Shown here in pieces: positions 4,597 to 51,213 of a DNA stretch of 64,000 nucleotides. Positions within the stretch are counted from its first letter, which is position 1, and each line of letters opens with the position of its first letter. Under the pieces are notes generated by a model. It saw nothing but the letters and a program-made list of their open reading frames with translations. It was not told the origin of the DNA and searched no databases. Source of the stretch: Candidatus Hydrothermarchaeales archaeon. GTDB lineage: Archaea > Hydrothermarchaeota > Hydrothermarchaeia > Hydrothermarchaeales > JAZGAD01. Location of the stretch: NCBI GenBank assembly GCA_036444275.1, contig JAZGAD010000047.1, positions 10,424 through 74,423 of the forward strand, written 5' to 3'. The position numbers and the translations under genes were made by a program.

Positions 4597-4665
4597 GGTT
4601 CTCACATCTTTAAAGGCTATCCATGGGGATTCGTAACTACTTATCGGACACCGCCCCACAGGCCA

Positions 4666-5322: not shown

Positions 5323-5449
5323 GTTGAATACCTCCGGTCTTATATCACAACCCCGAATATTTAAACTTTACTAAAACTTTACTACATACAAGTAGCCTTA
5401 GAAATATTCAACAACTTTAAATTTCTTTAAAAAATTTACTTCATGAGGT

Positions 5450-5466
5450 GTGCACTAATCGTGCAC
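5450..5466. promoter_or_regulatory. Candidate operator GTGCAC-N5-GTGCAC just upstream of the wHTH gene
   Basis: Two palindromic hexamers ending 1 nt before ATG 5468. Confidence 0.35.
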
Positions 5467-5467
5467 C

Positions 5468-5725
5468 ATGAACAAACTCATAGAGGTAGTTAGCCGTAAA
5501 GGTGCAGAAGAAATCTTACATTTGCTTGAGGATGAGGGGAAATACTACATGCAGATAGAAACGAATGTTGGTCTAAACTCAAGAACTTTGGTGACAAGAT
5601 TACGGGAGCTATCAAAAATCGGATTAATTGAAAGAAAAGTCAGAGACAATAGGAGGGTTCTGTACAGCATTACAGAAAGAGGAAGAAGAGCCGTTGAAAA
5701 ACTGCGTGAATTTCAAAAAATATGA
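5468..5725 (+). CDS. HxlR-like winged-helix transcriptional regulator
   Basis: LNSRTLVTRLRELSKIGLIERK...YSITERG pattern. Confidence 0.85.
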   Translation: MNKLIEVVSRKGAEEILHLLEDEGKYYMQIETNVGLNSRTLVTRLRELSKIGLIERKVRDNRRVLYSITERGRRAVEKLREFQKI

Positions 5726-5821
5726 GAATTTTTTGCTCTCATTTTATAAACCCCCAATCCTTTGCCTCATCGAAAACAGCGTACATTTTTGCCTCCTATC
5801 TCCAATTCATATCGCCACCCA

Positions 5822-9852: not shown

Positions 9853-9854
9853 AT

Positions 9855-13064: not shown

Positions 13065-14432
13065 ATGATAAAGGACCTTCCGGTTGATGTCGGGCTTATC
13101 TACGAAGGGGAGAGGATAAGAAAGAATTTAATGTATGTGGACCTCGCCGGGCCTAAAAGCAAGGGGGCAGAGCTTCTTAGAGTGGCACCAGCGGCGAAGG
13201 TGAAGGACACCAAGGTAAAGGTTGTCGGCCTTGATATAACTGACATGGAAGAGGGCAAAGCATATCCATTCAGCATTCTGGTGGAAGTCGCCGGCAAAAC
13301 ATTGGAGGAGGACTTGGAAGGAGTCTTCGAGAGACGCATTCACTATTTCCTCAACTATATACAGGGCTTCATGCACCTCAACAGCAGGGACATAATATGG
13401 TGCAGGGTTGGCAAGGATTCAGCCAAGAAGGGCATTACTCTAAAACACATAGGGCAAGCCCTCATGGACCTCTTTAAATCCGAGTTCGACACCATAGAGA
13501 AGATACAGGTGACCTTTTACACCAGCGATAAGGAGGTAGATAAGTTTCTAGCTAAAGCGAGGAAGGTCTATGAAAAACGCGATTCCAGGATACGCGGTCT
13601 TCGCGATGAAGACGTCGATACATTTTATGGTTGTGCCCTGTGCCAGAGTTTCGCCCCGCAGCACCTATGTACGATAACACCGAGTAGGACATCCTCCTGC
13701 GGATCTATATCCTGGTTCGAGGGCAGAGCTGCTGCCAAGGTGGACCCGAAGGGGCCTATATTCGCTATATCCAAGGGAGAACTAATAGATGAACTAAAGG
13801 GAGAGTACTCCGGGCCAGACGAAGCGACATATGAGCGCTCCAGTGGCACTGTATCCAAGGTATATCTGCATAGCCTCTTCGATTATCCTCACACATCCTG
13901 CGGTTGCTTTGAGGCCATAGCCTTCTACATGCCTGATGTGGATGGGATAGGGATCGTATCCAGGAGCTTTAATGGAAAGACGCCCTTTGGTATACCATTC
14001 TCAACTATAGCTGGACAGGTTGGCGGCGGCTTGCAGAGCACTGGATTCGCCGGTATAGCCGTAGAGTATCTGCGCTCACCCAAATACCTCCAAGCAGACG
14101 GCGGCTGGGAGCGAACAGTCTGGTTGCCCAAGGAACTCAAGGAGAGGATCGGCGATGACATACCAGAGCACATGAGGGATAAGATAGCCACTGAGGAGGA
14201 CGCTACAGATCTAGAATCCTTAAAGAAATTCCTCCAAGAAAAAGGACATCCAGTCATTGAGCGGTGGAAAAAAGAAGCTGTCGAGGTAGAAAAAACGAGT
14301 AAGCCTGTTGAGGTATCAGAGCTTCAGGTACTTGAGGGCATGCCGCTTGATGGAAGTGGGGTAACTATCGTCTTCAAGAACGCCAAGATCTATGCTGAAA
14401 AGGTGATCATCAAGCGGAAGGGGACGAGATAA
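13065..14432 (+). CDS. cdhC: Acetyl-CoA synthase (ACDS beta subunit)
   Basis: EGERIRK, CALCQSFAP, HTSCGCFE, ADGGW. Confidence 0.95.
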   Translation: MIKDLPVDVGLIYEGERIRKNLMYVDLAGPKSKGAELLRVAPAAKVKDTKVKVVGLDITDMEEGKAYPFSILVEVAGKTLEEDLEGVFERRIHYFLNYIQGFMHLNSRDIIWCRVGKDSAKKGITLKHIGQALMDLFKSEFDTIEKIQVTFYTSDKEVDKFLAKARKVYEKRDSRIRGLRDEDVDTFYGCALCQSFAPQHLCTITPSRTSSCGSISWFEGRAAAKVDPKGPIFAISKGELIDELKGEYSGPDEATYERSSGTVSKVYLHSLFDYPHTSCGCFEAIAFYMPDVDGIGIVSRSFNGKTPFGIPFSTIAGQVGGGLQSTGFAGIAVEYLRSPKYLQADGGWERTVWLPKELKERIGDDIPEHMRDKIATEEDATDLESLKKFLQEKGHPVIERWKKEAVEVEKTSKPVEVSELQVLEGMPLDGSGVTIVFKNAKIYAEKVIIKRKGTR

Positions 14433-15580
14433 TGAGGTATGATCTCGATGAACTTATCGCCTCCTTAGTTGATGCGGAAACAGTCGAACTTGAGAATGTC
14501 ACTATAGATACTGAAGAACTGGTCCTTGAAATCAGGAGGCTCGCAGGAGCCCGAAGACCTCTACATCCACCTATTCTGAAGCCCGAGAGACTGAAATTCC
14601 AAGTTCCCAAGGGAGAGTACAGGGGAGAAGTAGTAGAAGTGCAGTTCGGGGCTACGAAGGGCGATGGCGGGACTAGAGGAAAGGCAATTAAGATAGGTGG
14701 ACAGCGAAGCCTCTACTCCTTTGAGGATGGCATGCCAAATAGACCAGTTATCGCATATGATGTCTTCGATATGCCTATGCCAAGCTTTGCTAAATCGCTG
14801 AGAGAGGAGTGGCAGGATGCCTGGGATACCCCAGCGGAATGGGCAAAGAAAGCTGTGAAGCTGGGTGCAGATATGATAACCCTCCACTTAATATCAACAG
14901 ATCCAGGGATCAAAGATACCTCTCCTAAGGAAGCTGCTAAAACCGTGGAGGACGTGCTGCAGGCCGTAGATGTTCCCTTGGTTATCGGGGGCTCAGGTAA
15001 TCCAGAGAAGGACCCTGTGCTCTTCGAGAAGGTAGCTGAAGCTGCTGAGGGGGAGCTATGCCTACTCGCCTCTGCAAACCTTGACTTGGATCATAAGAGG
15101 ATAGTGGATGCTGCCAATAAGTACCGACACAACGTCCTATCCTGGACTTCTATGAATATAACAGACCAGCAGATGCTCAATAAACTCCTCCTCGACGAAG
15201 GGCTTCCGCAGGAGCGCATGGTCCAAGATCCCACTACAGGAGCGCTCGGCTATGGTTTGGAGTACACGTATTCCATCATTGAAAGGCTTAAGCTCAGCGC
15301 ACTTAAGGGAGAGAAGATATTGCAGAGCCCTATCTCCTGCGGTGTGACAAATGCATGGGCCGCTAGAGAAGCCTGGATGAATGAGCCTAGCTGGGGTGCA
15401 CGGGAGTACCGCGGTCCCCTGTGGGAGATAGTAACTGCAGTCACTGTGCTATTGGCAGGAGCTGACATGATGATGATGCTTCACCCTGGAGCCGTGAAGG
15501 CTGTGAAGGATATAATAGGGGCTATATCTGGAGAATTGAAAACCGAGCCCCTAGCTTACGAGGAATGGATCGCTCTATAG
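14432..15580 (+). CDS. cdhD: Corrinoid Fe-S protein small subunit (ACDS delta)
   Basis: GGSGNPEKDP, DPTTGALGYGLEY, NAWAAREAW. Confidence 0.95.
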   Translation: MRYDLDELIASLVDAETVELENVTIDTEELVLEIRRLAGARRPLHPPILKPERLKFQVPKGEYRGEVVEVQFGATKGDGGTRGKAIKIGGQRSLYSFEDGMPNRPVIAYDVFDMPMPSFAKSLREEWQDAWDTPAEWAKKAVKLGADMITLHLISTDPGIKDTSPKEAAKTVEDVLQAVDVPLVIGGSGNPEKDPVLFEKVAEAAEGELCLLASANLDLDHKRIVDAANKYRHNVLSWTSMNITDQQMLNKLLLDEGLPQERMVQDPTTGALGYGLEYTYSIIERLKLSALKGEKILQSPISCGVTNAWAAREAWMNEPSWGAREYRGPLWEIVTAVTVLLAGADMMMMLHPGAVKAVKDIIGAISGELKTEPLAYEEWIAL

Positions 15581-15590
15581 GGGGCCTGTG

Positions 15591-17012
15591 ATGGTCAAGA
15601 TATCACCACTGGAGATATACAAGCTCCTCCCAGGTACCAACTGCAAAGAGTGCGGCGAGGAGAGCTGCATGGCATTTGCCTCCAAGCTCATTGAGAGAGC
15701 GAAGGGAGTGGGAGATTGCCCACCTCTTGCAGAGGATAAATATTTAGAAAAGAGGGAGAAGCTGATAGAGCTCGTTACACCCCCGGTGAAGGAAGTAGTT
15801 GTAGGTGTTGGGGAAAGAGCAGTTGCTATCGGTGGGGAGGAAGTCATGTATCGCCATGAGCTCACCTTCTTCAACAAGACAGCCTTCTTCATAGATGTTC
15901 ACGATGAGATGAGCCAAGAGGAGTTGGCAAAGAAGGTTGAAGCCATAGACAAGTTCACCTTTGGAAGGGTCGGCCAAGAGTTGAAGCTCCAGGGGGTAGC
16001 GGTTAGGGCTAAGAGCGGGGAGCCCACGAAGTTCGGCGAGGCAGTGCTAGTAGTGACTGAGAAAACCGACCTCCCTCTAATGCTCTGCTCCTATGATCCA
16101 AAGCTGCTGGAAGTGGCTCTGGAGATAGCATTGGATAGAAGGCCTCTCATCTATGCGGCGACAAAGGATAACTGGGAGCAGGTTGTGAATCTAGCCCTGA
16201 AGCATGCCTGCCCGGTAGTTGTGTCGTCGCCAGGCGACATAGAGGGATTGATTGAGCTATCACAGAACTTGATGGAGAATGGAATAGAGGATATTGTCTT
16301 GGACATAGGCACTTATCCTGACGGTGGACAGCTTAAAGCCATGGAGGAGAATCTGGTCATGCTCAGGAGATCTGCTATAGAGGAAGAGGTAAAGCCCTTG
16401 GGATTCCCCATCTTGGGCGTGCCGATGGTAGCTGGTATGAGGGAGAAAGATCCAGTTAAGGCTGCTATGGCAGAGGTAACACTAGGTGCTTCGTTGATAC
16501 TGAAATACTGCGATATCATGGTAGTTAGCTCCATGGAGGTCTGGTCCCTTTTACCACTTCTCACCATACGGCAGAATATCTACACGGATCCGAGGATGCC
16601 CCTCCAGGTGGAAGCAGGTCTCAAGATTCTAGGCAGCCCCGACGAGAATGCACCTGTCTTTCTCACCTCCAATTTCGCCTTGACCTATTACACTGTGGCA
16701 TCTGATCTGGAGGCAGCGAAGATACCATGCTATGTATTAGTAGCTGATACAGATGGACACGCAGTGGAGGTAAGCATGGCTGGTCAGAAGCTAACTGCAG
16801 ACGTGGTCAAAAACGTTCTAGAGTCTTCTAAGGTCGCGGAAAAAGTGAAGCATAAAAAGCTCATCATTCCTGGTAGAGCATCTAGGATAAGCGGAGAGAT
16901 CGAAGACGCTACGGGCTGGGAGGTAATGGTGGGTCCCATAGACTCGGCCAGAATACCAAAGTTCCTGGATGAAAAGTGGAATGGCACGGCAGTCAGTAAA
17001 GGTCGTCAATAA
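15591..17012 (+). CDS. cdhE: Corrinoid Fe-S protein large subunit (ACDS gamma)
   Basis: TNCKECGEESCMAFA..CPPL Fe-S motif; TSNFALTYYTV. Confidence 0.95.
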   Translation: MVKISPLEIYKLLPGTNCKECGEESCMAFASKLIERAKGVGDCPPLAEDKYLEKREKLIELVTPPVKEVVVGVGERAVAIGGEEVMYRHELTFFNKTAFFIDVHDEMSQEELAKKVEAIDKFTFGRVGQELKLQGVAVRAKSGEPTKFGEAVLVVTEKTDLPLMLCSYDPKLLEVALEIALDRRPLIYAATKDNWEQVVNLALKHACPVVVSSPGDIEGLIELSQNLMENGIEDIVLDIGTYPDGGQLKAMEENLVMLRRSAIEEEVKPLGFPILGVPMVAGMREKDPVKAAMAEVTLGASLILKYCDIMVVSSMEVWSLLPLLTIRQNIYTDPRMPLQVEAGLKILGSPDENAPVFLTSNFALTYYTVASDLEAAKIPCYVLVADTDGHAVEVSMAGQKLTADVVKNVLESSKVAEKVKHKKLIIPGRASRISGEIEDATGWEVMVGPIDSARIPKFLDEKWNGTAVSKGRQ

Positions 17013-22695: not shown

Positions 22696-24147
22696 ATGAC
22701 AGAAGCTAGTCTCTTAATAGTAGATGATGCGGAGGGTATACGGGAAACCCTCTCGGATATATTCAAGGAGAAGGGTTACGGTACCGATGTAGCTGAGGAT
22801 GGCCGGGCAGCTATAGAGAAGGTAAAGAAGAGCTTCTTTAACGTCGTGCTCCTGGATATAAGGCTACCTGATATCTTGGGTGTAGAGGTATTGGAGAGTT
22901 TGAAGGAGATACGGCCAGATATAGAAGTGATAATGATTACAGCATATGCCTCTCTTGAGACCTCTATTGAGGCACTGAATAAGGGAGCATATGCCTATAT
23001 CATGAAGCCCCTTAACATGGGGGTGGTGATAGCTACCGTTAAGAAAGCCCTGGAGAAACAGCGCCTATCCGCAGAGAACATGTGGTTAACGGAATTCAAC
23101 GAACGCATTATAAAGAATGCACCGATTGGGATCTTAACCACCGATGAAAAGGGCGATATAACGAGTGCGAATCCAGCTATTCTTGAGATTCTGGATAGCT
23201 TGGAGACGGAAAAATTGATTGGGCTTAGCGTATTAACCCTCCCAACCAGTAGGGCAATGGGCTTAGATAAGGAACTCAAGAAAGTATTGTCTGAGGGAAA
23301 GGAGATAGAGCTAGCGGGGAAGTATGTTTCTGAATCTGGAGCAGATGTTTTTCTCCATATCAGAAGCACCCCATTGAGAAACGAAAAAAGAGACATAACA
23401 GGGCTCCTAGCGATAATCGAGGACGTAACTGAGAGAAAGAAGCTTGACAGCATGAAGGATGCGTTTATCTCCAATGTCTCGCATGAGTTGAGGACTCCCC
23501 TTACATCTATCCTCACTTCTCTGGAGCTTCTTTCAAAGGAAACTGTAGAGAAGGAGAAGCGTAAGCTCTTGGAAATCTGTGATAGGAATGCTTTGAGGCT
23601 AAATCGATTGGTGGACAATCTATTGGAAGTCAGCCGGATTGAAGTAGAGACATTAGATGTTCGGACACTCGACGTTACTCGGGTAGTGGCAGAGATAATA
23701 TCAGAGCTGCAGGATTTTGCCGTTGTGAGTAAAGTTACGCTAAAATCCCTTATCGAGGATGAGTTCCTCGTAAGGGCCGATAAAAAATCACTACGGCTTG
23801 TCTTCCTGAATCTGATCAGCAATGCCATCAAGTTTAATAAAGAAGGGGGTAAGGTAACGATATCCGGCGAGCGGGAGGATTCATTTACCAGGTTCTGCGT
23901 AGAGGATACAGGCATAGGCATTCCAAGAGGAGATTTGAAAGAAATATTCAAGAGTTTCTACCAAATCGATGCAAGCATAAGGCGCAGGTACCCTGGAGCT
24001 GGTGTTGGTCTAACTATAACGAAAAACATAGTAGACGCCCATGGAGGCAAGATATGGGCTGAGAGCAAGCCCGGTAAAGGAAGCAAGTTCTGTTTCACTC
24101 TACCCTCTGGAAGTAGAACCGGGAAGAAGATAAAAGAGGTAGGATAA
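22696..24147 (+). CDS. Cytoplasmic hybrid histidine kinase REC-PAS-HisKA-HATPase
   Basis: IVDD..LLDI REC; PAS; SHELRTPLT; NAIKF; DTGIG; GxGL. Confidence 0.93.
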   Translation: MTEASLLIVDDAEGIRETLSDIFKEKGYGTDVAEDGRAAIEKVKKSFFNVVLLDIRLPDILGVEVLESLKEIRPDIEVIMITAYASLETSIEALNKGAYAYIMKPLNMGVVIATVKKALEKQRLSAENMWLTEFNERIIKNAPIGILTTDEKGDITSANPAILEILDSLETEKLIGLSVLTLPTSRAMGLDKELKKVLSEGKEIELAGKYVSESGADVFLHIRSTPLRNEKRDITGLLAIIEDVTERKKLDSMKDAFISNVSHELRTPLTSILTSLELLSKETVEKEKRKLLEICDRNALRLNRLVDNLLEVSRIEVETLDVRTLDVTRVVAEIISELQDFAVVSKVTLKSLIEDEFLVRADKKSLRLVFLNLISNAIKFNKEGGKVTISGEREDSFTRFCVEDTGIGIPRGDLKEIFKSFYQIDASIRRRYPGAGVGLTITKNIVDAHGGKIWAESKPGKGSKFCFTLPSGSRTGKKIKEVG

Positions 24148-24283: not shown

Positions 24284-24958
24284 CTATACCTCTTTCCCCT
24301 CTGCCAATTCTTCCAGCTCCAACGGGTGCTCATGTTCCATTTGTTCTTTACTCAGTGTTCCAGTTATCCATTGCTTTGCCATTGGAAATATATCTGGATT
24401 CAAAATCGCCGCGTATAAATGTACGACTATTACAACAGAAAATGCCAAGATGGCCTCCCACCCATGTATCAACCAAGCATAATTGACGAACTGTAGCGGT
24501 AGGACTTCCAAGGTCATATCGAATGTGAACCACATCATAAGTCCTGTTACAACTACTATGAGAGAACCAACAGCTCCGGCCCAGTAATCGAACTTCTGCT
24601 CCCAGGTATACCTCCCCATTTTTGGCATTTCGTCGGTCATCCGTAAATTGTATTTGATGTGGTGTATAGCGTCATCGAAATCTTTCCTTTGCGGCATTAT
24701 GTCCTTCTTTCCTCTGTCGATCATGGTGTAATATATCACATGTATAAGGCCTGTACCGATGAATACTACTGCAGCAATTTGATGATATAAACCTCTATTA
24801 GCCGGACCCCCAAGCAAGTCAACTATACTCTGTGCCCAGGATGTGTGGGCGTATTTCAATGGGAATCCCGTCAATGCCAAGATGAAAAACGATAAAGCCC
24901 AAAGGACGTGTTGTATCCTCTGAAAGACGGTAAATCTTAAGAATTCTTCTTCGGTCAT
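24284..24958 (-). CDS. Membrane cytochrome b (FdnI/Ni-hydrogenase cyt b-like, CbcL C-terminal-like)
   Basis: RF...QRIQH, 4 TM helices with His ligands, QKFDYW, IHGWEAIL, EHPLE. Confidence 0.88.
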   Translation of the reverse strand: MTEEEFLRFTVFQRIQHVLWALSFFILALTGFPLKYAHTSWAQSIVDLLGGPANRGLYHQIAAVVFIGTGLIHVIYYTMIDRGKKDIMPQRKDFDDAIHHIKYNLRMTDEMPKMGRYTWEQKFDYWAGAVGSLIVVVTGLMMWFTFDMTLEVLPLQFVNYAWLIHGWEAILAFSVVIVVHLYAAILNPDIFPMAKQWITGTLSKEQMEHEHPLELEELAEGKEV

Positions 24959-25524
24959 TTCGCACGCCCCCCTTTCCTACTCTTACCTAACCTCCGACTA
25001 AAGTCCAATATCTCAAAGACTACGAAGAATCCTAGCACCGCGGAGATAAGTGTTTTATAGAAGAAGTTTATCAGCCCATTCACGGAGATTGGGCCTAGAG
25101 AGTATATATCGCTTCCATGCATCGATCCCTTGCCGGCATTGGCCAATTTAACATCATGACAATCTTCCCTCGCGCATATATCAGGTCTATTCTTAGGATT
25201 AGTGGGTGAATTTGGATCGCTCTGCGGAAGGAAATACATCCAGTCCACCATGCCGTGGCAATCCGTACAAGTTGGGACACCCTCTTTTCCGAGGGCAGCC
25301 GCTTTACCATGAGGGGACTCTTGGTACGTCTTGTTCGCATATTCAAAGGTATATGCAAGGTTATACCTCGTCTTAGCCTCAGAAGGTAGGGGGCTCTTCC
25401 ATCCCTCACTCCTGTATTTCTCCATGTCCCTCTTCTGGACTTCCTGAGCCTCCACGACATGGCTCAGGGATATGAAGCCTAAAAGGAAGAGTATTAGAAC
25501 CCCGCCCTTTACCAACTCTCTCAT
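24955..25524 (-). CDS. Small membrane-anchored cytochrome c
   Basis: Signal peptide; YxxSPHG; CTDCH and CAREDCH; C-terminal TM. Confidence 0.82.
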   Translation of the reverse strand: MRELVKGGVLILFLLGFISLSHVVEAQEVQKRDMEKYRSEGWKSPLPSEAKTRYNLAYTFEYANKTYQESPHGKAAALGKEGVPTCTDCHGMVDWMYFLPQSDPNSPTNPKNRPDICAREDCHDVKLANAGKGSMHGSDIYSLGPISVNGLINFFYKTLISAVLGFFVVFEILDFSRRLGKSRKGGRAK

Positions 25525-25551
25525 TGGTCCTGTTCTCCTTGTAAAATTTTA

Positions 25552-27051
25552 TTATTCATGCAGACGCGGAGGTTCGAGGTATTCTTGGAGTACCCAAGGC
25601 GAAACGTGGTTGTGGCATCCGTTGCATGAGTTGGGCTGCACATTCCAGAGCAGATCGTCCAGGGTTTTTCCTGCGGACATAGCTTCTCGGGCTTTTTTCT
25701 TGAGCAGCTCTTCCACTTGGGTCGTGTTAAGGCCTTCTACATCTTTAGCCTCGAGGCCGTAGAAACCCAGGACGGTGTTATCCTTCTTCGCGGCTTTGTC
25801 AACTAGGAGTTTTATGCTGACCTCTGGTTTAATGACCTTGAACCTGTGGCTCCTAATATCTCCGGGGTTAATGTTCTTTGCAGTCGGGGGCATATGGCAG
25901 CCGACGCAGTTCCCGAAGTCGTGGATAGTATGGCTCAACCCAGCGAGGCCTGGAACCCTCCTCGGCTCACCGTGGCAGGCTTTGCACAGCGCAGTGCCTG
26001 CTAGCTTGGTCTCGAACCTGCCTTCACCTTTAGAGTGAACGGTGTGGCAGTCCCAACAGGTTATTCCTGCCTTCGCATGCTCACTTATCTGCCAATCTGG
26101 ATACTGTTGGTGGTGTGATTTGGAGTCTCCACTCGGCCAGAAGCGTTTTGGTGTATCTTTTTCGCGTGTAACAGGATCGTACAGGGGTATCAAGTTCATA
26201 CCGGGTTTGTAGCCAACGGGATATCCGTATTTCGCATCGAGGGTAGAATGACCTCGGGTGTGGCATGAGCCACAAACCATGACCCCTATATCTGTTTGTG
26301 GGATCTTTGCTGGGTTTACGATCGTATCCTTCTTGTAGGGGGTATCGGCCAATATGTGGTTGCTCCCCGGTCCGTGGCAAGCTTCACATCTGGCTCCGTT
26401 ATCTATCCAAGTTGAGGCATAGGTATCCGTGACTTCATCGTAGTTTATTTGAAAGCCTGTTGTATGGCAACCAGCGCATTTATACTGCCAGATCCTTCCC
26501 TTGCTGCTCCAATAATTTTTGGGATCATCATAATCATATTTCTCCAGCCCATGGTAGTCTTGCCACTTCTGTTCCCTAATATTCCATTGAACAGGGAGTA
26601 TATGGAATTCTCCATTGTCGAACTTCGTGAGATATCTCTGCTTCCAGGCACTACCGATGGTATAGAGCACTTCGTAGATGTGCTCTTCTCCATCAGGACC
26701 GATAGTAGTTATATAATATTTTCCGTCCTCTGTCGACATCGTGGTGTTCTTATCCTTAACGGTCAATTCGTTGTTCTTGACAAAATCGCCGAGGACGACG
26801 TTTTCGCCGATTTCCTGTATTTTATATGGATGCAGTGTCGTTTTCCAACCGGCGTAAGTTCTCTCGTGGCATTGCTTACATTGAACAGAACCGACGTAAG
26901 TAGCCCCCTCAGTGGTGGTTGGCTTTTCTTCTCCTATTCTAAATCGTTCTAAGAAGCTGAATCCAGGCGTTAAGGTTATAAATGCAATCGTTACTACTAC
27001 AAACGCGGCTACAAGCAACCGCGAGATTCTTTTTCTCTCCTCTTGCTGCAT
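25552..27051 (-). CDS. Octaheme cytochrome c, N-terminally anchored
   Basis: Eight CxxCH motifs: CKQCH, CAGCH, CEACH, CGSCH, CWDCH, CKACH, CVGCH, CNGCH. Confidence 0.92.
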   Translation of the reverse strand: MQQEERKRISRLLVAAFVVVTIAFITLTPGFSFLERFRIGEEKPTTTEGATYVGSVQCKQCHERTYAGWKTTLHPYKIQEIGENVVLGDFVKNNELTVKDKNTTMSTEDGKYYITTIGPDGEEHIYEVLYTIGSAWKQRYLTKFDNGEFHILPVQWNIREQKWQDYHGLEKYDYDDPKNYWSSKGRIWQYKCAGCHTTGFQINYDEVTDTYASTWIDNGARCEACHGPGSNHILADTPYKKDTIVNPAKIPQTDIGVMVCGSCHTRGHSTLDAKYGYPVGYKPGMNLIPLYDPVTREKDTPKRFWPSGDSKSHHQQYPDWQISEHAKAGITCWDCHTVHSKGEGRFETKLAGTALCKACHGEPRRVPGLAGLSHTIHDFGNCVGCHMPPTAKNINPGDIRSHRFKVIKPEVSIKLLVDKAAKKDNTVLGFYGLEAKDVEGLNTTQVEELLKKKAREAMSAGKTLDDLLWNVQPNSCNGCHNHVSPWVLQEYLEPPRLHE

Positions 27052-27307: not shown

Positions 27308-28096
27308 TCAGTCCTTTTTCTTACTCTTATAGGCTTCAAAGACTTCCAAGAACGGTTTAAATAGGTCTATCGGCACCGGGAATATGACGTTTGAGCCCCG
27401 TTCTCCTGAGATCTCGACTAGGGATTGCAGATATCTCAATTGGAGTGCCATTGGATGGGGTCCAATAATCTCTGCTGCTTCCGCGAGTTTTTCTGCTGCT
27501 TGGAATTCTCCCAAGGCGTTGATCACCTTTGCCCTTCTCTCCCTCTCTGCCTCGGCTTGCCTCGCCATAGCCCTCTTCATGACTTCTGGAAGCTCGACAT
27601 CCTTGACCTCAACACATGATACCTTCACTCCCCAGGGTTCTGTATGTGAATCTATAATCCTTTGAAGAGTATAATTGATCTTATCCCTCTCTGCGAGCAG
27701 TTCGTCCAGCTCATGTTGCCCAATAACACCCCGTAAGGTTGTCTGAGATATCAGCGTGGTAGATGCCACGTAGTCCGCCACCTCTACTGTGGATTTCACT
27801 GCATCCATTACGTTGAAGTATATAACGGCATCGACTTTGGTCGTCACATTGTCCTTGGTGATAACGTCTTGGGCCGAGACATTTTCTGTAACTACCCTCA
27901 GATCTACCCTGAAGATCTTATCCACAAAGGGTATTATAAAGACTAAGCCCGGTCCTCTTGCATCTTGCAACCTCCCCATCCTGAAGAGAACCCCTCGCTC
28001 GTACTCTTTAAATACCCATATCGACATCTTGAGAAGTACCGAGACTACCAAAACTACGAGTATAGTAATTATAGTAATATACGTCCCTACAGGCAT
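27308..28096 (-). CDS. SPFH/band-7 (slipin/stomatin) protein
   Basis: EYERGVLFR.G, QDVITKDNV, MARQAEAERERRA. Confidence 0.95.
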   Translation of the reverse strand: MPVGTYITIITILVVLVVSVLLKMSIWVFKEYERGVLFRMGRLQDARGPGLVFIIPFVDKIFRVDLRVVTENVSAQDVITKDNVTTKVDAVIYFNVMDAVKSTVEVADYVASTTLISQTTLRGVIGQHELDELLAERDKINYTLQRIIDSHTEPWGVKVSCVEVKDVELPEVMKRAMARQAEAERERRAKVINALGEFQAAEKLAEAAEIIGPHPMALQLRYLQSLVEISGERGSNVIFPVPIDLFKPFLEVFEAYKSKKKD

Positions 28097-28387: not shown

Positions 28388-30928
28388 ATGATTGTGAGGT
28401 CCAAAAGTCGATATGAAATACCGAAAATGGAGAAAATGGATTGGATGAACAAAGAACAACAAAAAGCGGCGCTCATTTTGGTAGTGGCATTTATTGGTAG
28501 TGCACTTACAGTAAACGGAACGCTTACAGCGGCGGAAGAAAAATATAGTACGATATTAAGCGCTGTGAGAACAAACGAAACGATAATCATAGATGGGCAG
28601 TTAAAGGAGTCTTCATGGAATGAGACAAAGACACTGATCATCCCAGTGGTGGATGGAAAGGTCGGGGATGTAGATGTGGAGATGAAGGCATTATACGATA
28701 CTGACTATATCTACATGTACATCGTATGGCCTGATCCGACCCAAAGCGATGCTTTATTCTGGGGATATAATGGCACTGCTTGGAACCCCCCAAATAAAAA
28801 TACAGAGGATATTTTCACGATCTTCTGGAATATAAGGGACTCGGTTGAGGGATATGATATAGCTGGATGCGCCATTACTTGCCACGCAAATAGGATGCAT
28901 ACCAATACCCCCGAAGAAAGACTCGATTACTGGAAATGGAAGGCAGAGAAAGGCAACCCCTCCGGCTATATGTGGGATGGATTCCTAGACGATATCGTGG
29001 TTATCGGGGAGAAGATATATCCCGGTTTTTCTAGGACCTTTATGATCGAGAAGGCATGGCATTCACACAAGCTAGATGAAACATCGGGTGACTATGTGGA
29101 GGAGAGAAAGAACGCGATTATCGATGAGAGAGGCAATTTCATTGGGCCGAGATATTATGAACCTGACGCAAGGGGCGAAGATGCGAAACACATCACGATG
29201 GAGGAGATCCTTAGGGACGAGGCCGTGGAATTTTTGAATTTAACAAAACTGAACGATGGAAGAGAGATCTCGATCGGCTTCAAAGTGCCTGTATACATCT
29301 CCGAAAAACCGACAGGAAGTGCTAGAGATATAAGCGCCAAAGGGGTTTATTATGACGGGAAGTGGCATCTGGAATTCAAGAGAAAATTGCAGACCGGGCA
29401 CGACGACGATGTCCTGTTCGATATCGCGAAGACCTATCGTTTCAGCATAGCTGTGAATGACGATTCTCACGGATCCGCCAACGAGGGTTATGGCCAAGGA
29501 CACAGCATAAGCATGCTGGCGCGAACCCTAGAATTTGGCGGGATTGGTTCTGAAGAGATAACCCAACTGGCACTAATCCGCGATTATCTTCAGACCGCCA
29601 AGGCATATACCGGGCGCGGGGAATCGGGAATGGCGCTTTCAGAGGTCGATCATGCGTTGGCGATTTTCAATGCGATCAGGGGAGCAGTCGCCGACGAAGA
29701 CCCAGAACTCTACATGGACATTAGAAAGAGATTTGTAGAGGCCAAGAGGAATCCCTCGATCGATAACCTTGATGTCGTGCTTCAAGGCATCGAGGTTGCT
29801 ACATTAACTTTGCAGGGAAAGAGAGAGCCGCCAGAAGCGCCGTGGAATGTAAAGCTCCTAGTTCTCTGGGGGAGCGTACAACTTTACGTCTTTGTCTTTA
29901 TATCGATATTTGTTCTCTATCCCCTCTACAAAACGATACAAACAACTAGAATACCGGAAATGCGCTATTTCGGCATCTTCCTATTTATAGTCATCCTCCC
30001 CCTATTTCTTGAAGGCGTTGGGAGGTTTGGGGTCCTTTTCAAGATCAGATTTTTGCAGAACTTCAGTTTCACAACAAATGAATACATAACCTTGCTCTGG
30101 GCGATAGGCATGTTCATAGCCTTGCTCATAGCCAAAGTTGGATTCACCGAAATAGATGAGACCATTCGCTCATTAAAATATTACAGCGCTGAAGTCGAAA
30201 CTAAGATGGAGGAGTTGAGAAAATCGCAAGAGCAACTGGTCAAGTCAGAGAGGATGGCTTCCATAGGGCAACTGGCAGCGAGTGTTGGCCACGAGTTGAG
30301 AAATCCTCTTGGAGTGATCAAGAACGTGAGCTACTATCTCAGCATGGCCCTAGCCGAGAAAGATGAAAAGGTGAAGAAGCACTTAAATATCCTAGAAAGG
30401 GAACTAGATACCTCCAACAAAATCATCACCGACTTATTGGACTTTTCACGGGGGGAGATAGAACCCACTTTTGGGGAAGCCAACATCAATGCGATCCTTA
30501 AGGATACATTGGCCAGGGCATCGGTACCTGACAATGTCAAAGTGGAAACTTATCTGGCCGATTTACCCTCAATGAGAGTAGATGGAGAGCAATTACAGCG
30601 GGTGTTCTTGAATATGATTTCAAACGCTGTTCATGCGATGCCCGATGGTGGTAAATTGATTATCAGAACCAAAAGTAAGGGCAACTCCGTAGAGATAGAG
30701 TTCGAGGACACCGGCAAAGGGATTTCGAAAGAGGATATAAAGAAGATCTTCGAACCGCTCTTTACCACTAAGGCAAAAGGGATTGGGTTGGGGTTAGCGA
30801 TCTGTAAACAAATCATCGATGGGCATGGGGGCACCATCGATGCGGTGAGCGCTGTAGACCAGGGGGCAACTTTTATCATCAAACTACCCGTGATGGAAGT
30901 AGAGGAAGATGAAGAAAAGGAAAACTAG
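28388..30928 (+). CDS. Membrane sensor histidine kinase with extracellular EB_dh/DOMON-like heme-binding domain (true start may be a downstream Met)
   Basis: Signal/TM; IDG...W, KALYD..YIY...WPD, GCAITCH, DYWKWK, WHLEFKRKL; 3 TMs; GHELRNPL; HATPase. Confidence 0.85.
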   Translation: MIVRSKSRYEIPKMEKMDWMNKEQQKAALILVVAFIGSALTVNGTLTAAEEKYSTILSAVRTNETIIIDGQLKESSWNETKTLIIPVVDGKVGDVDVEMKALYDTDYIYMYIVWPDPTQSDALFWGYNGTAWNPPNKNTEDIFTIFWNIRDSVEGYDIAGCAITCHANRMHTNTPEERLDYWKWKAEKGNPSGYMWDGFLDDIVVIGEKIYPGFSRTFMIEKAWHSHKLDETSGDYVEERKNAIIDERGNFIGPRYYEPDARGEDAKHITMEEILRDEAVEFLNLTKLNDGREISIGFKVPVYISEKPTGSARDISAKGVYYDGKWHLEFKRKLQTGHDDDVLFDIAKTYRFSIAVNDDSHGSANEGYGQGHSISMLARTLEFGGIGSEEITQLALIRDYLQTAKAYTGRGESGMALSEVDHALAIFNAIRGAVADEDPELYMDIRKRFVEAKRNPSIDNLDVVLQGIEVATLTLQGKREPPEAPWNVKLLVLWGSVQLYVFVFISIFVLYPLYKTIQTTRIPEMRYFGIFLFIVILPLFLEGVGRFGVLFKIRFLQNFSFTTNEYITLLWAIGMFIALLIAKVGFTEIDETIRSLKYYSAEVETKMEELRKSQEQLVKSERMASIGQLAASVGHELRNPLGVIKNVSYYLSMALAEKDEKVKKHLNILERELDTSNKIITDLLDFSRGEIEPTFGEANINAILKDTLARASVPDNVKVETYLADLPSMRVDGEQLQRVFLNMISNAVHAMPDGGKLIIRTKSKGNSVEIEFEDTGKGISKEDIKKIFEPLFTTKAKGIGLGLAICKQIIDGHGGTIDAVSAVDQGATFIIKLPVMEVEEDEEKEN

Positions 30929-31283
30929 CATTTTGGTAGTAGATGACGATATAGGCACGTGTGAAACCTTGGCCGATATTCTGACTGCGAAAGGATATAA
31001 TGTAACTACTGCAGAGAGCGGAATTGAAGCGGTTGAGAAACTCAAGGGGGAGCTCTTCAAAGTTATCCTCATGGATATAAAGATGATGGGAATAAACGGC
31101 ATAGAGACAATTAGGGAGATCAAGAAGATAGTATATCCTGAGGTGGCGATAATTATGATGACGGCCTACGTCGCCGAGGCCCTCGTAACAGAAGCTTTGA
31201 GGGAAGGGGCATATGCCGTTGTCTACAAACCTTTGGATATTGAGAGGATAATAAAGCTCATTGAAAGTGCAACAGTTAAGTAG
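30909..31283 (+). CDS. Stand-alone response regulator (REC only)
   Basis: VVDDD, LMDIKM, MTAY, KP. Confidence 0.93.
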   Translation: MKKRKTSILVVDDDIGTCETLADILTAKGYNVTTAESGIEAVEKLKGELFKVILMDIKMMGINGIETIREIKKIVYPEVAIIMMTAYVAEALVTEALREGAYAVVYKPLDIERIIKLIESATVK

Positions 31284-31342
31284 GATACAAATGGCCGTTA
31301 CATTATGTAAATGTGAGATATTTAGGGAGAAGATGACTCGGA

Positions 31343-32980
31343 ATGTCCGAAGAAAGCAGCATCTTGATAATTGACGATGATAAAGGGATGCGCGAGACCC
31401 TTACAGACATACTCCAGGTGAAGGGCTACAAGACGGAGAGCGCAAAGGACGGAGAAGCGGCCTTGGATAAGCTGAAGGAGAAGTCCTTCAATGTAGCGCT
31501 CGTCGACATAAAGCTCCCGGATATTTCAGGCACAGAGGTATTGAAAAAACTCAAAGAGATTCAGCCGGATACGATAGTGATCATGATCACTGCTTTCGCT
31601 TCTCTCAATACTTCGATTAAGGCTTTGAAAGAGGGGGCATATGGCTATATCATGAAACCCTTGAATATGGATGAATTATTCGCTACCATCGGAGAAGGTC
31701 TCGAGAAACAGCGGTTGCAAAAAGAATTAAAAAAGTACTCTGAGCAACTGGAAGAGATGGTGAAAGCTAGGACTGAGGAATTACAGAATGCCTATGAAGA
31801 ACTCAAAGGCCTCGCCATCGAGAGAGCCCGTAATATCGAAGTAATACAAGAGCAATCGAGGGAACTCAAGGAAGCTAAGGACTTCTTGGATAACGTGATA
31901 GACAGTAGCGCTGACGCGATAATCACTACTGGGTTGGACGGTACGATAACCTCTTTTAGCAGGGGTGCTGAGGAGCTCTATAAATACAAGGCTAAAGAGG
32001 TTATAGGCAAGCCGGCCCTCTCCCTTTACCCAAAGGAGCTTCGAGAAGAGAGGAGGGCTGGGTTGGATACGCTTCTTAAGGGCGAGACTATACGGAATAT
32101 GAGAACCAGGATATACAATGCCGATGGAGAGCTTGTAGATATAAGTCTCTCTCTTTCCCGGCTCAGAGATATCTCCGGAAAGGCTATTGGTACTGTCGGA
32201 GTCTCAAAGGATATATCCAAGGAGATAGAGGGAGAAAAACGTCTGACGGAGGCATATGAGAGGCTTGTCGAATTGGATAAGATGAAGGACGAGTTCCTAT
32301 CCAATATTTCACATGAGCTACGCACACCTATAACCTCGATTGTGACCTCCCTAGAGTTATTAGAGGAAGAAAGTCTACCGGGGGAGAGGGAGAAACTTCT
32401 GGAGGTATCTAAGAGGAATGTTTGGAGGCTGGATAATCTCGTCGGCAACCTACTGGAGTTCAGCCGCTTAGGAACGCAGAAGCTGCAAATGCAACCATTG
32501 AACGCAAGTGTGCTGGTTCGTGAGCTTATAGCTGAAATGGAGAACTTTGCGGCAAGCAATGAAGTGGAGGTTAAGTCCTTTCTAAAGGAAGAAACCATGA
32601 TCATGGCTGATAAAAAGTTCGTAGGGCCTATATTCGGGAATCTCATTGGCAATGCCATAAAATTCAATAAGCGGGGGGGCAAGGTTAGGGTATCGGCGGA
32701 GGAAGAGAATTCGTGGATAAAGTTTTGCGTAGAAGATACCGGTGTAGGAATCCCCAAAGAAGGCTTGGACAAGGTATTCGATAGATTCTACCAGATCGAT
32801 GCAAGCATCAGACGCAGGTACCCAGGCACAGGCTTAGGGCTGACCATAGCCAAGGAGATGGTGGAGCGCCAGGGAGGCATGATATGGGCTGAAAGCGAAT
32901 TGGGAAAGGGTAGCAGGTTCTATTTCACTCTGCCCTCGGAACCTAGAACTAGAACCAGAAAAAAGATAAACGAGAAATGA
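31343..32980 (+). CDS. Hybrid histidine kinase REC-coiled coil-PAS-HisKA-HATPase (paralog of 22696-24147)
   Basis: SHELRTPIT; shared FYQIDASIRRRYPG. Confidence 0.93.
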   Translation: MSEESSILIIDDDKGMRETLTDILQVKGYKTESAKDGEAALDKLKEKSFNVALVDIKLPDISGTEVLKKLKEIQPDTIVIMITAFASLNTSIKALKEGAYGYIMKPLNMDELFATIGEGLEKQRLQKELKKYSEQLEEMVKARTEELQNAYEELKGLAIERARNIEVIQEQSRELKEAKDFLDNVIDSSADAIITTGLDGTITSFSRGAEELYKYKAKEVIGKPALSLYPKELREERRAGLDTLLKGETIRNMRTRIYNADGELVDISLSLSRLRDISGKAIGTVGVSKDISKEIEGEKRLTEAYERLVELDKMKDEFLSNISHELRTPITSIVTSLELLEEESLPGEREKLLEVSKRNVWRLDNLVGNLLEFSRLGTQKLQMQPLNASVLVRELIAEMENFAASNEVEVKSFLKEETMIMADKKFVGPIFGNLIGNAIKFNKRGGKVRVSAEEENSWIKFCVEDTGVGIPKEGLDKVFDRFYQIDASIRRRYPGTGLGLTIAKEMVERQGGMIWAESELGKGSRFYFTLPSEPRTRTRKKINEK

Positions 32981-33009
32981 CAACAAGGTATTGGAAGGGC
33001 TGTTAAGGA

Positions 33010-35460
33010 ATGCAAAGGAGAGCGAGGGACTTTTATCAATTAAGCTTGTTTAGTAGGGCTAAACGTAAGGATACGGCTATTTACATACCTAAAATTATAC
33101 TTATAGTGATAATACTCGCTAGTTTTGCAGTTGTAGCAGGAGAGGTAGTGGAAAGACAGAGCACCATTTTGACAGCTGAGAGGGTCACTGAGCCGGTCGA
33201 GGTAGATGGGCTAGCTACTGAGAGTGCTTGGGATAGCGCGAGGCCGCTGGTGGTCACGGTCCAAGATGGTAGTATAGGGAGGATAGACGTATACCTCAAG
33301 GCATTATACGATTCTGACTACATCTACATCTATGCCACGTGGCCTGATCCAACTGAGAGTGTTAGTAAGCGTATGTGGGGCTTCAATGGCATAAACTGGT
33401 CTTTTTCTGACGACGAAGACAGATTTTCGGTCTTCTGGAATATAGACGATTCCGTCAAGGGCTTCAATGTCGGTGGTTGTGCGATGCTCTGTCACGGTGA
33501 TAGGATGCATGCTAATGCAGAGGGTGAGAAGGCTGACTCTTGGCACTGGAAGAGCAGTAGAACCAATCCAGTTGGTTATGCAGACGACAAATACGTAGAC
33601 TCCCACGTTGTGCCTTACGAGGGTGGAGAGAAAATGGTAGGTCGCCATGGAGACCAAGCAGTCAGCGGGGGTTACATGCGTAACATCAATGACGAGGGCA
33701 CTAAGCCACTCTACTATGAGCCCTTGCCTGAGGATGAGTTGGATGCCTTGTTCCTATTGGAGGAGGAAGTCGAGGATGGTGAGGCAGTATTGTTGGATGA
33801 GGCGGAGCTTAAGTCGGGTATAGTTGTACCTGGTTATATCCTTAGTAAGCCAAGTGGCAGCAGAGGCGACATCGATTCTAAAGGTGTATGGCAAAACGAG
33901 AGGTGGGCTGTGGAGTTTCGTAGGAAGCTTGTGACTGGGCACGATGATGATGTCCAGTTTGATACTAGTAGGACGTATCGTTTTGGTATAGCTGTGATGG
34001 ACAATACGGGTGGCTTTGAGGGCTTCGGAAAGGGTCATAGCTTTGACTTGGGTGCCAGGACGCTTGAGTTCGGCGGCATTGGGAGCGAAGAGGTGACTCA
34101 GTTGGTCTTGATACGGGACTACCTAGTTACTGCCAAAGCACATGTTAGAGATGGAAAACCAGGATTGGCACTTTCAGAAGCCAACGATGGTCTCACATTG
34201 TACAACGAGATCCGCGACGAGGTTGCAGACGTGGATCCAGAGCTCTACATAACTATAAAAAATGCATTCGTGGATTCTGTGAGGAATCCCACACTAAGCA
34301 ATATAGACATCCTGATAAGAAACATCGACGATGTTGTGCTAACTTTCCAGGGAAAGAGGCAACCAGCTGAACCGACGTGGAATCTAAAGCTCCTCATCGC
34401 ATGGGGGCGGATACAGCTCTATGTGTTCGTCGTGCTCTCAATACTTGTAACATACCCCATCTATAAGACAGTAAAGACGAGCGCGAGACCAGAATTACGC
34501 CATCTGAGTCTCTTCTTGCTGATAGTAATGGCTCCGATATTCCTCGAGGGAGTGGGCCGCTTTGGTGTTCTTGCTAAGATTCATTTTCTGCAGAAGTTCA
34601 GTTTCACGACAAATGAATATATAACAATGATATGGGCGATAGGCATGTTCATAGCTTTGTATGTCGCTAAGATAGGATTCAACGAAGTAGATGATACCAT
34701 CAAGTCGCTGGGTTACTACAGCACTGAACTCGAGACCAAGATGGAGGAGCTGAGGAAATCACAGGCAAAACTTTTAGGAGCAGAGAAATTGGCTTCTATA
34801 GGGCAGCTGACTGCAAGCATCGGGCATGAGCTGCGTAATCCGTTGGGCGTGATTAAGAACATAAGCTACTATCTCGACATGAAATTAGGCGATAGGGATG
34901 AAAAAATTAAGAAACATCTGCGGCTCTTGGATGAGGAGCTTGTCAGGTCAAATGAGATAATAAGCGATCTTTTGGACTTCTCTAGGGGTATAGAGCCGAC
35001 TCTTCACGATGTTGACATCAATCCAGTCGTGGGGGAAGCCCTATTGAGAGCCACGATACCAGGTAACATCGAAGTGAGCACAAATTTTGAGGATGCATCA
35101 CCTAAGGTCTCCGTGGATAGCGAGCATATAGTGAGGGTATTTATGAATATAATCTCGAATGCAGTTCAGGCGATGCCAGAAGGTGGGAGTTTAAGGATAA
35201 GAACAGTGAAAAAGGATGATTTCATAGGAATAGAGATCACGGACACAGGCGTTGGAATCCCGAAAGAAGATGTAGGGAAAGTCTTTGAACCTTTATTTAG
35301 TACGAAGGCGAAGGGGATAGGCCTGGGCCTAGCCATTAGTAGGCAGATCATAGAGAGACATGGCGGTAGCATTGAAGTAGAGAGCGTCCTAGATAGTGGG
35401 ACTACATTTATTGTAAAACTCCCGATAAAAAGGAGTCAGGGCGATGAAGGGGAAGACTAG
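33010..35460 (+). CDS. Second EB_dh/DOMON-like heme-domain sensor kinase (paralog of 28388-30928)
   Basis: GCAMLCH, DSWHWK, WAVEFRRKL, ARTLEFGGIGSEE, GHELRNPL. Confidence 0.85.
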   Translation: MQRRARDFYQLSLFSRAKRKDTAIYIPKIILIVIILASFAVVAGEVVERQSTILTAERVTEPVEVDGLATESAWDSARPLVVTVQDGSIGRIDVYLKALYDSDYIYIYATWPDPTESVSKRMWGFNGINWSFSDDEDRFSVFWNIDDSVKGFNVGGCAMLCHGDRMHANAEGEKADSWHWKSSRTNPVGYADDKYVDSHVVPYEGGEKMVGRHGDQAVSGGYMRNINDEGTKPLYYEPLPEDELDALFLLEEEVEDGEAVLLDEAELKSGIVVPGYILSKPSGSRGDIDSKGVWQNERWAVEFRRKLVTGHDDDVQFDTSRTYRFGIAVMDNTGGFEGFGKGHSFDLGARTLEFGGIGSEEVTQLVLIRDYLVTAKAHVRDGKPGLALSEANDGLTLYNEIRDEVADVDPELYITIKNAFVDSVRNPTLSNIDILIRNIDDVVLTFQGKRQPAEPTWNLKLLIAWGRIQLYVFVVLSILVTYPIYKTVKTSARPELRHLSLFLLIVMAPIFLEGVGRFGVLAKIHFLQKFSFTTNEYITMIWAIGMFIALYVAKIGFNEVDDTIKSLGYYSTELETKMEELRKSQAKLLGAEKLASIGQLTASIGHELRNPLGVIKNISYYLDMKLGDRDEKIKKHLRLLDEELVRSNEIISDLLDFSRGIEPTLHDVDINPVVGEALLRATIPGNIEVSTNFEDASPKVSVDSEHIVRVFMNIISNAVQAMPEGGSLRIRTVKKDDFIGIEITDTGVGIPKEDVGKVFEPLFSTKAKGIGLGLAISRQIIERHGGSIEVESVLDSGTTFIVKLPIKRSQGDEGED

Positions 35461-35809
35461 AGTATTGGTAGTGGACGACGACGCTGGAACCTGCGAAACC
35501 TTATCAGACATCCTCTTGGAAACTACCTGTCAAGTTACTATGGCACGCGATGGATTTGAGGCCATAGAGAAGATGAAGGGGGAAAGCTTCGATGTTGTTC
35601 TTATGGATATAAAGATGCCAGGCATAAACGGGGTGGAGACTTACAAAGAGATGAAGAAGATAAATCCAGAGGCGAAAGTGGTTATGATGACAGCCTACGT
35701 TGGGGACGATCTAGTGGCAGAGGCCCTGAAGGAGGGGGCATCTACTGTGCTCTATAAGCCTTTGGATATAGGTAAGATGATAGACATCATAAAGGGAAAA
35801 TCCACATAA
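35444..35809 (+). CDS. Stand-alone response regulator (REC only)
   Basis: VVDDD, LMDIKMPG, MTAY, KP. Confidence 0.93.
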   Translation: MKGKTRVLVVDDDAGTCETLSDILLETTCQVTMARDGFEAIEKMKGESFDVVLMDIKMPGINGVETYKEMKKINPEAKVVMMTAYVGDDLVAEALKEGASTVLYKPLDIGKMIDIIKGKST

Positions 35810-51132: not shown

Positions 51133-51213
51133 ATTTTTATTAAATAACGGAAAGCATATAATAATCTTGTGAAACTGATTGGTGTCCCCTCCTGTGCTTC
51201 TGTCCAATCCAAA

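Follow-up and report, generated by a model that had tools for sequence, protein, structure and literature searches.

Paired membrane histidine kinases with EB_dh-type ectodomains in a Hydrothermarchaeales archaeon: candidate extracytoplasmic heme-based redox sensors

Introduction

What do two neighboring histidine kinases read if the domain that they are predicted to hold outside the membrane belongs to the family of the heme-binding subunits of molybdoenzymes? The question is raised by a 64,000-nucleotide stretch of DNA (here called the window), positions 10,424 to 74,423 of contig JAZGAD010000047.1 in assembly GCA_036444275.1 of a Candidatus Hydrothermarchaeales archaeon, which encodes two such kinases, HK1 and HK2. 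An original prediction, made from the DNA sequence alone, had proposed that their EB_dh domains carry a heme, possibly a covalent heme c, and serve as a redox-sensing input. We followed up this prediction with domain, structure, homolog, and gene neighborhood analyses. Our answer is that HK1 and HK2 may be extracytoplasmic heme sensors which read a redox state and report it through a phosphorelay, a reading to which we give a probability of about 45%.

Results

HK1 and HK2 are paralogs, with 54% identity across 795 amino acids (aa), and the lengths and the common layout claimed for them were recovered from the open reading frames (ORFs), Pfam matches, and hydropathy (Table 1). Both proteins have a single N-terminal transmembrane (TM) segment with basic residues before it, an ectodomain of about 410 aa, and three further TM segments by hydropathy (in HK2, the four segments are residues 27 to 45, 460 to 484, 497 to 516, and 538 to 557), and Pfam places HisKA and HATPase_c domains at both C termini. 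The hydropathy profile predicts an N-in topology, with the EB_dh domain outside the membrane and the kinase inside. The H-box, HELRNPL, is at residue 635 in HK1 and residue 606 in HK2; with the H-box His, HATPase_c, and an adjoining receiver gene, both proteins have the features of two-component kinases of the HisKA type. The start of HK2 is uncertain, as a database copy (P0006, 784 aa) begins at residue 33, which would clip TM1. All motifs quoted in the original prediction are present in the translations (GCAITCHANRMH, GCAMLCHGDRMH, KALYD.DYIY..WPD, D.W.WK, and W..EF.RKL), with one correction, namely that HK2 reads VDG, not IDG.

The assignment of the N-terminal region to EB_dh was confirmed by Pfam scores above the cutoff in both proteins (PF09459; Table 1) and by the predicted fold. 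CBM9_1 (E = 0.038, 14.3 bits, Pfam cutoff 23.4) and DOMON (E = 0.0098, 16.5 bits, Pfam cutoff 32.7) were matched in HK1 only and below their cutoffs, so that the outcome which would have spoken against the original prediction, matches to CBM9 or DOMON only, did not occur. An AlphaFold2 model of HK2 residues 45 to 470, calculated from an 82-row alignment, reached a mean predicted local distance difference test score (pLDDT) of 91.7 and a predicted template modeling score (pTM) of 0.81 and consists of a β-sandwich (model residues 1 to 312) followed by a helical bundle (315 to 402). The top Foldseek matches of the model in the PDB are NxrC (7b04_C, E = 2.9e-12) and EbdC (2ivf_C, E = 2e-10), both of them heme b subunits, with TM-scores by target of 0.56 to 0.71, and CBM9 structures come behind the heme subunits (1i82_A, E = 1.1e-6; 7nwn, E = 1.4e-5). 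When a sandwich-only profile built from 54 relatives was compared with the PDB, 7b04_C was again the best match (E = 3.2e-19), followed by the CBM9 structure 1i82_A (4e-6) and 2ivf_C (5e-4). PDB searches with the single sequence or a 15-row profile gave a weak NxrC match only, and an 82-row profile was dominated by the kinase domains. The ectodomain has no Pfam match to PAS or Cache, and no such structure was among the Foldseek matches with E ≤ 0.001. Together, these matches place the ectodomain in the DOMON/CBM9 superfold as an EB_dh-type domain, with the heme binders as its nearest relatives.

The second element of the prediction was a CxxxCH motif as a possible heme c site. The two Cys residues of the motif are the only ones in the ectodomain of either kinase, and a canonical CxxCH does not occur anywhere in HK1 or HK2. 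We collected 100 homologs by searching with the HK2 ectodomain, 90 of which cover at least 80% of it (the full-ectodomain set), and found exactly one Cx3CH per protein in all 90. Eight homologs without the motif (P0096, P0097, P0099 to P0103, and P0105) cover just 33 to 58% of the query; an EB_dh match is kept in five of these partial homologs and absent in three. The remaining two have the motif once (P0098) or in each of two repeats, with a CxxCH in each repeat as well (P0104). C157, C161, H162, and H343 (HK2 numbering) are invariant in the 82 aligned sequences, and the expected conservation of CxxxCH was thus borne out. Position 166, the Met of the RMH that follows the motif, is Met in 66 of the 82 rows, His in 9, Lys in 5, Phe in 1, and another residue in 1; Met, His, and Lys are all heme-ligating residues.

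The fold shared with CBM9 also admits a reading without heme, in which the ectodomain is a CBM9- or DOMON-like module that recognizes a sugar or some other molecule outside the cell, with the Cys-Cys-His-Met set forming a disulfide or a metal (e.g., copper) site. The CBM9 structure and profile matches and the weak CBM9_1 and DOMON matches of HK1 are in its favor, and Cys, His, and Met are typical Cu(I) ligands too. However, the best sequence and fold matches are heme subunits, and the CBM9_1 score is below its cutoff. CBM9 modules (1I82 and 7NWN), which have the β-sandwich superfold in common with the kinases, bind sugars, contain no heme, and have no Cys-His loop. The CH pair is kept in 54 of 54 wider relatives, including three in which the first Cys is Gly or Ala. 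Neither a disulfide nor a metal site made of two Cys residues would survive the loss of this Cys, and retention of CH without it fits thioether attachment of heme instead. Many relatives are also fused to multiheme cytochrome domains with 6 to 9 CxxCH motifs. We therefore consider a heme-free ectodomain improbable.

In NxrC, the heme b ligands are Met155 and Lys305, "as in EBDH" (PMC8387239). EbdC and NxrC share with the kinases PF09459 and the fold, a Met in the loop that precedes the WxWK strand, and, near the end of the sandwich, a ligating residue (Lys in the subunits, His343 as the candidate in HK2). Counted in profile alignments back from the first Trp of the WxWK strand, the ligand Met is 10 residues away in both EbdC (M108) and NxrC (M155), and in HK2 M166 is 12 and H162 is 16 residues away. 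The Met of RMH thus comes closer to the EbdC/NxrC Met-ligand register than the His of CH does. At the other end, K305 of NxrC aligns within five residues of the H343 column, in a stretch of low alignment confidence. In the 54-row alignment of wider relatives, the 49 filled rows of this column have His in 44, Asn in 4, and Lys in 1, and three of the five non-His rows have a Lys in the column or just after it. Relatives without the motif lose the entire loop, Met included. A more distant EB_dh subgroup (P0303 to P0321) has no Cys-His-Met loop, keeps the WxWK strand, and probably binds no heme in this way.

From the register of the Met and the alignment of H343 with the Lys column, it appears that the ligand pocket positions of EbdC and NxrC are kept and that the Cys-x3-Cys-His is an addition immediately before the Met. 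Our best guess at the coordination is a covalent heme between His162 and His343, with Met166 as a packing residue or a ligand that may swap in; ligation by Met166 and His343, or the presence of two hemes, are less likely alternatives. In favor of a heme c, the organism encodes c-type cytochromes, one of them with a Cx4CH motif in the neighboring operon. Modeling two ectodomain copies with two hemes gave a score of 0.20, against a mark of 0.42, and weighs neither way.

An input domain joined to unrelated outputs usually indicates a sensory module. A hand count of Pfam annotations in the 90 full-coverage homologs gave kinase domains (HisKA, HisKA_2, or HisKA_3, with or without PAS/GAF) in 68, GGDEF in 3, HD-GYP in 1, PAS with DUF835 in 3, PAS only in 2, and no recognized output in 13, several of which are contig-end fragments. 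As the ectodomain and the three TM segments are joined as one module to unrelated outputs, the claim that the EB_dh domain serves as sensory input is supported, and the module can be regarded as a swappable one. The helical bundle, the three TM segments, and the outside loop between TM3 and TM4 contain many near-invariant columns in the 82-row alignment, which fits a transducer role. A search of the ESM Atlas with the bundle and TM part gave no usable feature match, and all structure rows had TM-scores below 0.5 by query. In a FastTree phylogeny of 134 sandwich domains, unrooted and with local supports only, the 82 sensors group in a single clade of 83 leaves, the other leaf being the fragment P0110 with its sensor-type motif, and this grouping suggests that the sensors were recruited once from the secreted EB_dh family.

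Two complete ORFs, at 4417-6351 in locus L006 (644 aa) and 8422-10419 in L007 (665 aa), have the ectodomain and the three TM segments and no known output; their C-terminal stretch looks like a coiled coil. In L016 (6052-9466), the sensor is split into an EB_dh-TM-PAS ORF (800 aa) and a following HisKA-HATPase ORF (322 aa), and either a real split or a frameshift in the metagenome-assembled genome (MAG) may explain this.

The CxxxCH motif is not peculiar to kinases. An exhaustive profile search returned 2753 representatives with E ≤ 0.001, 924 at 1e-10, and 199 at 1e-30. Among the best 150 matches, about 20 carry the ectodomain-plus-TM module, and the others are secreted stand-alone proteins (300 to 400 aa), tandem repeats, or multiheme cytochrome fusions. 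Cx3CH was found in 121 of 131 new representatives, usually once per EB_dh domain, and in 67 of 89 proteins from a second search, where the 22 without it were the weakest matches or fragments. Cx3CH is thus the hallmark of a large subfamily of EB_dh proteins, most of them secreted and stand-alone, which their sources name "ethylbenzene dehydrogenase-related protein" or "hypothetical"; one is from Vibrio (P0264). Both CxxCH and Cx3CH occur in each domain of P0104 and P0140, and no match to P0140 was found in plasmids by tblastn. The three relatives in which the first Cys is replaced (P0151, P0191, and P0225) are stand-alone proteins with a pattern that recalls single-thioether heme attachment. 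P0114, P0108, P0175, P0218, and P0264 comprise proteins with three to four tandem domains, fusions with 8 to 9 CxxCH motifs, and a stand-alone protein of a cultured Vibrio (349 aa), all uncharacterized.

The composition of this family raises a further possibility, namely that the EB_dh domain carries electrons in the outer respiratory chain and just happens to be tethered to a kinase, whose phosphorylation would depend on different inputs, for instance the membrane module or partner PAS proteins. Most members are indeed stand-alone secreted proteins or parts of multiheme cytochromes, and 13 of the 90 full-ectodomain homologs lack a recognized output, though several of these are partial. Against a mere tether stand the joining of the same module to four unrelated output types, the single clade of the sensors, and the strong conservation of the helical bundle and the TM loop, all of which fit an input domain that transduces a signal, and we judge a tether very improbable.

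The octaheme cytochrome noted in the original prediction as a neighbor is real and, together with a small c-type protein and a b-type cytochrome, forms an operon upstream of HK1 (Table 1). This operon is a probable target or signal source of the sensors. The small c-type protein had no Pfam or NCBIfam match, and its orthologs in loci L008 and L009 are 91% identical with both heme motifs kept. These two loci, on MAG contigs of "Candidatus Hydrothermarchaeales archaeon," encode sensor kinases with 87 to 89% identity to HK1, and the HK1, octaheme, small c-type, b-type, and Band-7 genes are preserved there with synteny and 82 to 91% identity. In L009, the HK1 ortholog is also followed by an equivalent of the REC-PAS-HisKA-HATPase gene of the window; after this gene, a triple-PAS kinase occupies the place of HK2. 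A second, similar REC-PAS-HisKA-HATPase gene is found in the window beyond the cytochrome operon (22696-24147, + strand). Clusters of b-type and multiheme cytochromes were proposed to be menaquinone:cytochrome c oxidoreductases in Methanoperedenaceae (PMC7327174).

A scan of species-representative genomes gave 16 sensor loci in 11 assemblies, nine archaeal and two of Desulfobacterales, several of which have two or three sensor paralogs. Multiheme ORFs are present in five of the 16 loci (L002, L008, L009, L010, and L012), and all 10 such ORFs are at most 3.3 kb from the sensor. Ten loci with longer flanks were annotated with Pfam. Rieske/cytochrome b and cytochrome c genes adjoin the sensor in L002 and L012, NapC/NirT-like and pentaheme genes lie downstream in L002 and L010, and a COX1/NOR-type gene is near the sensor in L016. 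The partner regulator contains DUF7347 in L002 and L010 and is receiver-only in the window. Genes for molybdopterin alpha or FeS beta subunits were not found among the scanned ORFs of the window or in the 10 annotated loci, which argues that the EB_dh kinase is not a gamma subunit.

Table 1. Features of the window that bear on the two sensor kinases
Feature	Position	Strand	Remarks
b-type cytochrome (PF01292)	24284-24958	-	same operon as octaheme cytochrome (24284..27051)
Small c-type protein	24955-25524	-	189 aa; CxxCH (CTDCH) and Cx4CH (CAREDCH); C-terminal hydrophobic tail
Octaheme cytochrome c	25552..27051	-	499 aa; 8 CxxCH; 1.3 kb upstream of HK1
Band-7/SPFH gene	27308-28096	-	between cytochrome operon and HK1; position kept in L008 and L009
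HK1	28388..30928	+	846 aa; TM1, EB_dh ectodomain, helical bundle, 3 TM, HisKA, HATPase_c
HK1 EB_dh (PF09459) match	28631..29473	+	residues 82-362; E = 1.1e-26, 94.7 bits, cutoff 33.3
HK1 CAITCH (C161, C165, H166)	28868..28885	+	putative heme c attachment; columns invariant in 82-row alignment
HK1 Met170	28895-28897	+	Met of RMH
HK1 His372 (GHS)	29501-29503	+	equivalent of the invariant GHS His
HK1 three-TM module, conserved outside loop	29846..30154	+	residues 487-589; hydropathy and near-invariant alignment columns
Single-domain response regulator	30909..31283	+	124 aa; start overlaps HK1 end by 20 nt
Hybrid REC-PAS-HisKA-HATPase protein	31343..32980	+	545 aa; between the two kinase/regulator pairs; likely relay component
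HK2	33010..35460	+	816 aa; same layout as HK1
HK2 EB_dh (PF09459) match	33235..34008	+	residues 76-333; E = 8.1e-32, 111.6 bits, cutoff 33.3
HK2 CAMLCH (C157, C161, H162)	33478..33495	+	putative heme c attachment; invariant columns
HK2 Met166	33505-33507	+	Met of RMH
HK2 His343 (GHS)	34036..34038	+	candidate axial ligand on the side where EbdC/NxrC have Lys; 82/82
HK2 extracytoplasmic helical bundle	34084..34347	+	residues ~359-446; AlphaFold2 model helices 315-402 (+44 = protein numbering)
HK2 TM2-TM4	34387..34680	+	residues 460-557; hydropathy
HK2 HisKA and HATPase_c	34801..35430	+	residues 598-659 and 703-807; Pfam
Single-domain response regulator	35444..35809	+	121 aa; start overlaps HK2 end by 17 nt

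Elsewhere in the window, cdhC, cdhD, and cdhE of CODH/acetyl-CoA synthase lie in a row (13065-17012, + strand; NCBIfam equivalog-level matches). Mevalonate genes are found at 8695-10892 and 49861-51207 (both - strand), encoding a thiolase, an archaeal HMG-CoA synthase, and a class II-type HMG-CoA reductase. TFB, archaeal MinD, and fibrillarin/Nop-type proteins are encoded as well.

Discussion

Extracytoplasmic heme sensors are already known; what would be new here is one with a different fold and its own transducer. The closest relatives by fold, EbdC (2IVF chain C) and NxrC (7B04 chain C), are soluble heme b subunits of molybdoenzymes with Met/Lys ligation (PMC8387239), whereas the kinases have no molybdoenzyme genes nearby. 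Compared with these subunits, the kinases have the CxxxCH motif, His in place of Lys, the helical bundle, three TM segments, and the kinase part. A CX3CH motif in an EB_dh protein is not without precedent: Melnyk et al. report that the EbdC-like Dsui_0143 of Azospira suillum has a CXXCH and an atypical CWXXCH, suggest heme c binding, and find both motifs conserved in NirB of Pseudomonas stutzeri (PMC3884062). These proteins share with HK1 and HK2 an EB_dh domain with an atypical Cx3CH that was proposed as a heme c site; they differ in that they are soluble, serve electron transfer, have an additional CxxCH, and lack a signaling part. NirB we take to be the protein purified as dihaem cytochrome c-552. 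The emphasis that the original prediction put on the motif is therefore justified as to its conservation, but not as to its being special to kinases, nor is its proposal as a heme c site new. PcrS of Azospira, considered as a possible already described EB_dh kinase, was rejected, as its periplasmic part is reported to match no Pfam domain (PMC3884062).

Among signaling proteins, the Geobacter chemoreceptors GSU0582 and GSU0935 have periplasmic c-heme sensor domains (PMC3460858), and sCache_heme domains (DUF3365/Tll0287) are described in a preprint as standing alone or fused to kinases, chemoreceptors, or cyclases (PMC12889525). A covalent heme c in an extracytoplasmic signaling input is what HK1 and HK2 are predicted to have in common with them. 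The known domains, however, have a PAS or Cache fold and a canonical CXXCH, in contrast to the EB_dh/DOMON sandwich, the CX3CH, and the bundle and three-TM transducer of the kinases. We found no literature linking EB_dh or DOMON with a histidine kinase, in a search that left most subscription journals uncovered, so that an earlier in silico mention is possible; on CX3CH in EB_dh proteins, only the paper of Melnyk et al. was found to bear. The architecture is visible in database domain annotation but undiscussed, and the statement that no kinase of this architecture has been characterized agrees with our finding no paper that describes one.

A mechanism for HK1 and HK2 can be sketched as follows. 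N-in insertion would put the ectodomain of about 410 aa outside the membrane, with a heme seated where EbdC and NxrC bind heme b. Most likely, both Cys residues of CxxxCH would hold this heme covalently, between His162 and, on the opposite face, the invariant His343; Met166 may either pack against the heme or serve as another ligand that can switch in. The redox state of the iron would be set by exchange with the adjacent octaheme and diheme cytochromes or by the available electron acceptors. A change of this state may alter the ectodomain and be passed on via the helical bundle and the conserved three-TM module, and autophosphorylation at the HELRNPL histidine would shift. Phosphate could then flow to the single-domain regulators, which are translationally coupled to the kinases, and to the REC-PAS-kinase relay protein; the domains of all of these are evident from Pfam. 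To judge from the gene neighborhood, the output may tune respiratory-chain genes or behavior.

Several points weigh against HK1 and HK2 being redox sensors of this kind. That heme is bound, and bound covalently, we infer from sequence. Three conserved candidate ligands (H162, M166, and H343) are present for two axial positions, and H162 and M166 are too near each other in the sequence to take opposite faces of one heme. The window contains no ccm or other heme-lyase gene, although the neighboring c-type cytochrome genes imply that the organism has a heme c maturation system, and by Pfam its regulators are receiver-only, with no DNA-binding domain. No respiratory or cytochrome genes are near the sensor in L005, L006, L007, and L014, four of the 10 annotated loci. 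Since L008 and L009 have the same arrangement as the window, and L002 the same as L010, the cytochrome contexts reduce to three independent ones (window/L008/L009, L002/L010, and L012), and the probability of such adjacency by chance is about 0.2 by a uniform-placement estimate. With just three contexts, statistical support for cytochrome adjacency was rejected, and the genomic link between cytochromes and sensors is suggestive.

One more consideration of this kind comes from the sCache_heme preprint, which offers the best analogy: signaling-fused domains, of a different fold, bound NO like dedicated NO sensors, and stand-alone ones looked redox-like (PMC12889525). It favors an alternative in which the same heme senses a small diatomic or sulfur ligand (NO, O2, CO, or sulfide), which displaces a labile Met166 or His343 and is read by the kinase. 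The heme-site evidence serves this alternative as well as it serves redox sensing. A conserved ligand to spare would suit it too, as would the CxxxCH loop, the least confident part of the modeled β-sandwich (pLDDT of 74 at model residues 111 to 120), and the COX1/NOR-type gene in L016. However, genes for nitrogen-oxide or oxygen reductases are absent from the window, an invariant His343 together with a Met166 that is conserved in most sequences points to six-coordinate heme in the style of electron carriers, and the same residues are shared by stand-alone and multiheme-fused relatives. The type of signal, redox as opposed to NO or another gas, is likewise inferred, and we consider ligand sensing unlikely.

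With redox sensing as the preferred reading, a broader proposal can be made, which we offer tentatively and with some doubt: the EB_dh domain with its CX3CH heme c, the helical bundle, and the three TM segments may constitute a new class of extracytoplasmic redox receptor, recruited once from a secreted electron-transfer protein. With such receptors, archaea (Hydrothermarchaeales) and some Desulfobacterota and Nitrospirota might read the electron load of their outward cytochromes, such as whether electrons are being taken up by a mineral or a partner cell, and answer via kinases, c-di-GMP enzymes, and other outputs.

Little is understood, above all for archaea, of how cells that respire with outside electron acceptors monitor their outer electron-transfer chain, and an outside heme sensor beside clusters of the quinol:cytochrome c oxidoreductase type would be a direct, testable candidate. 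If HK1 and HK2 function as proposed, EB_dh would be the third fold, after PAS and Cache, among extracytoplasmic heme c sensor domains, and a function would be provided for part of the very large and unstudied "ethylbenzene dehydrogenase-related" family.

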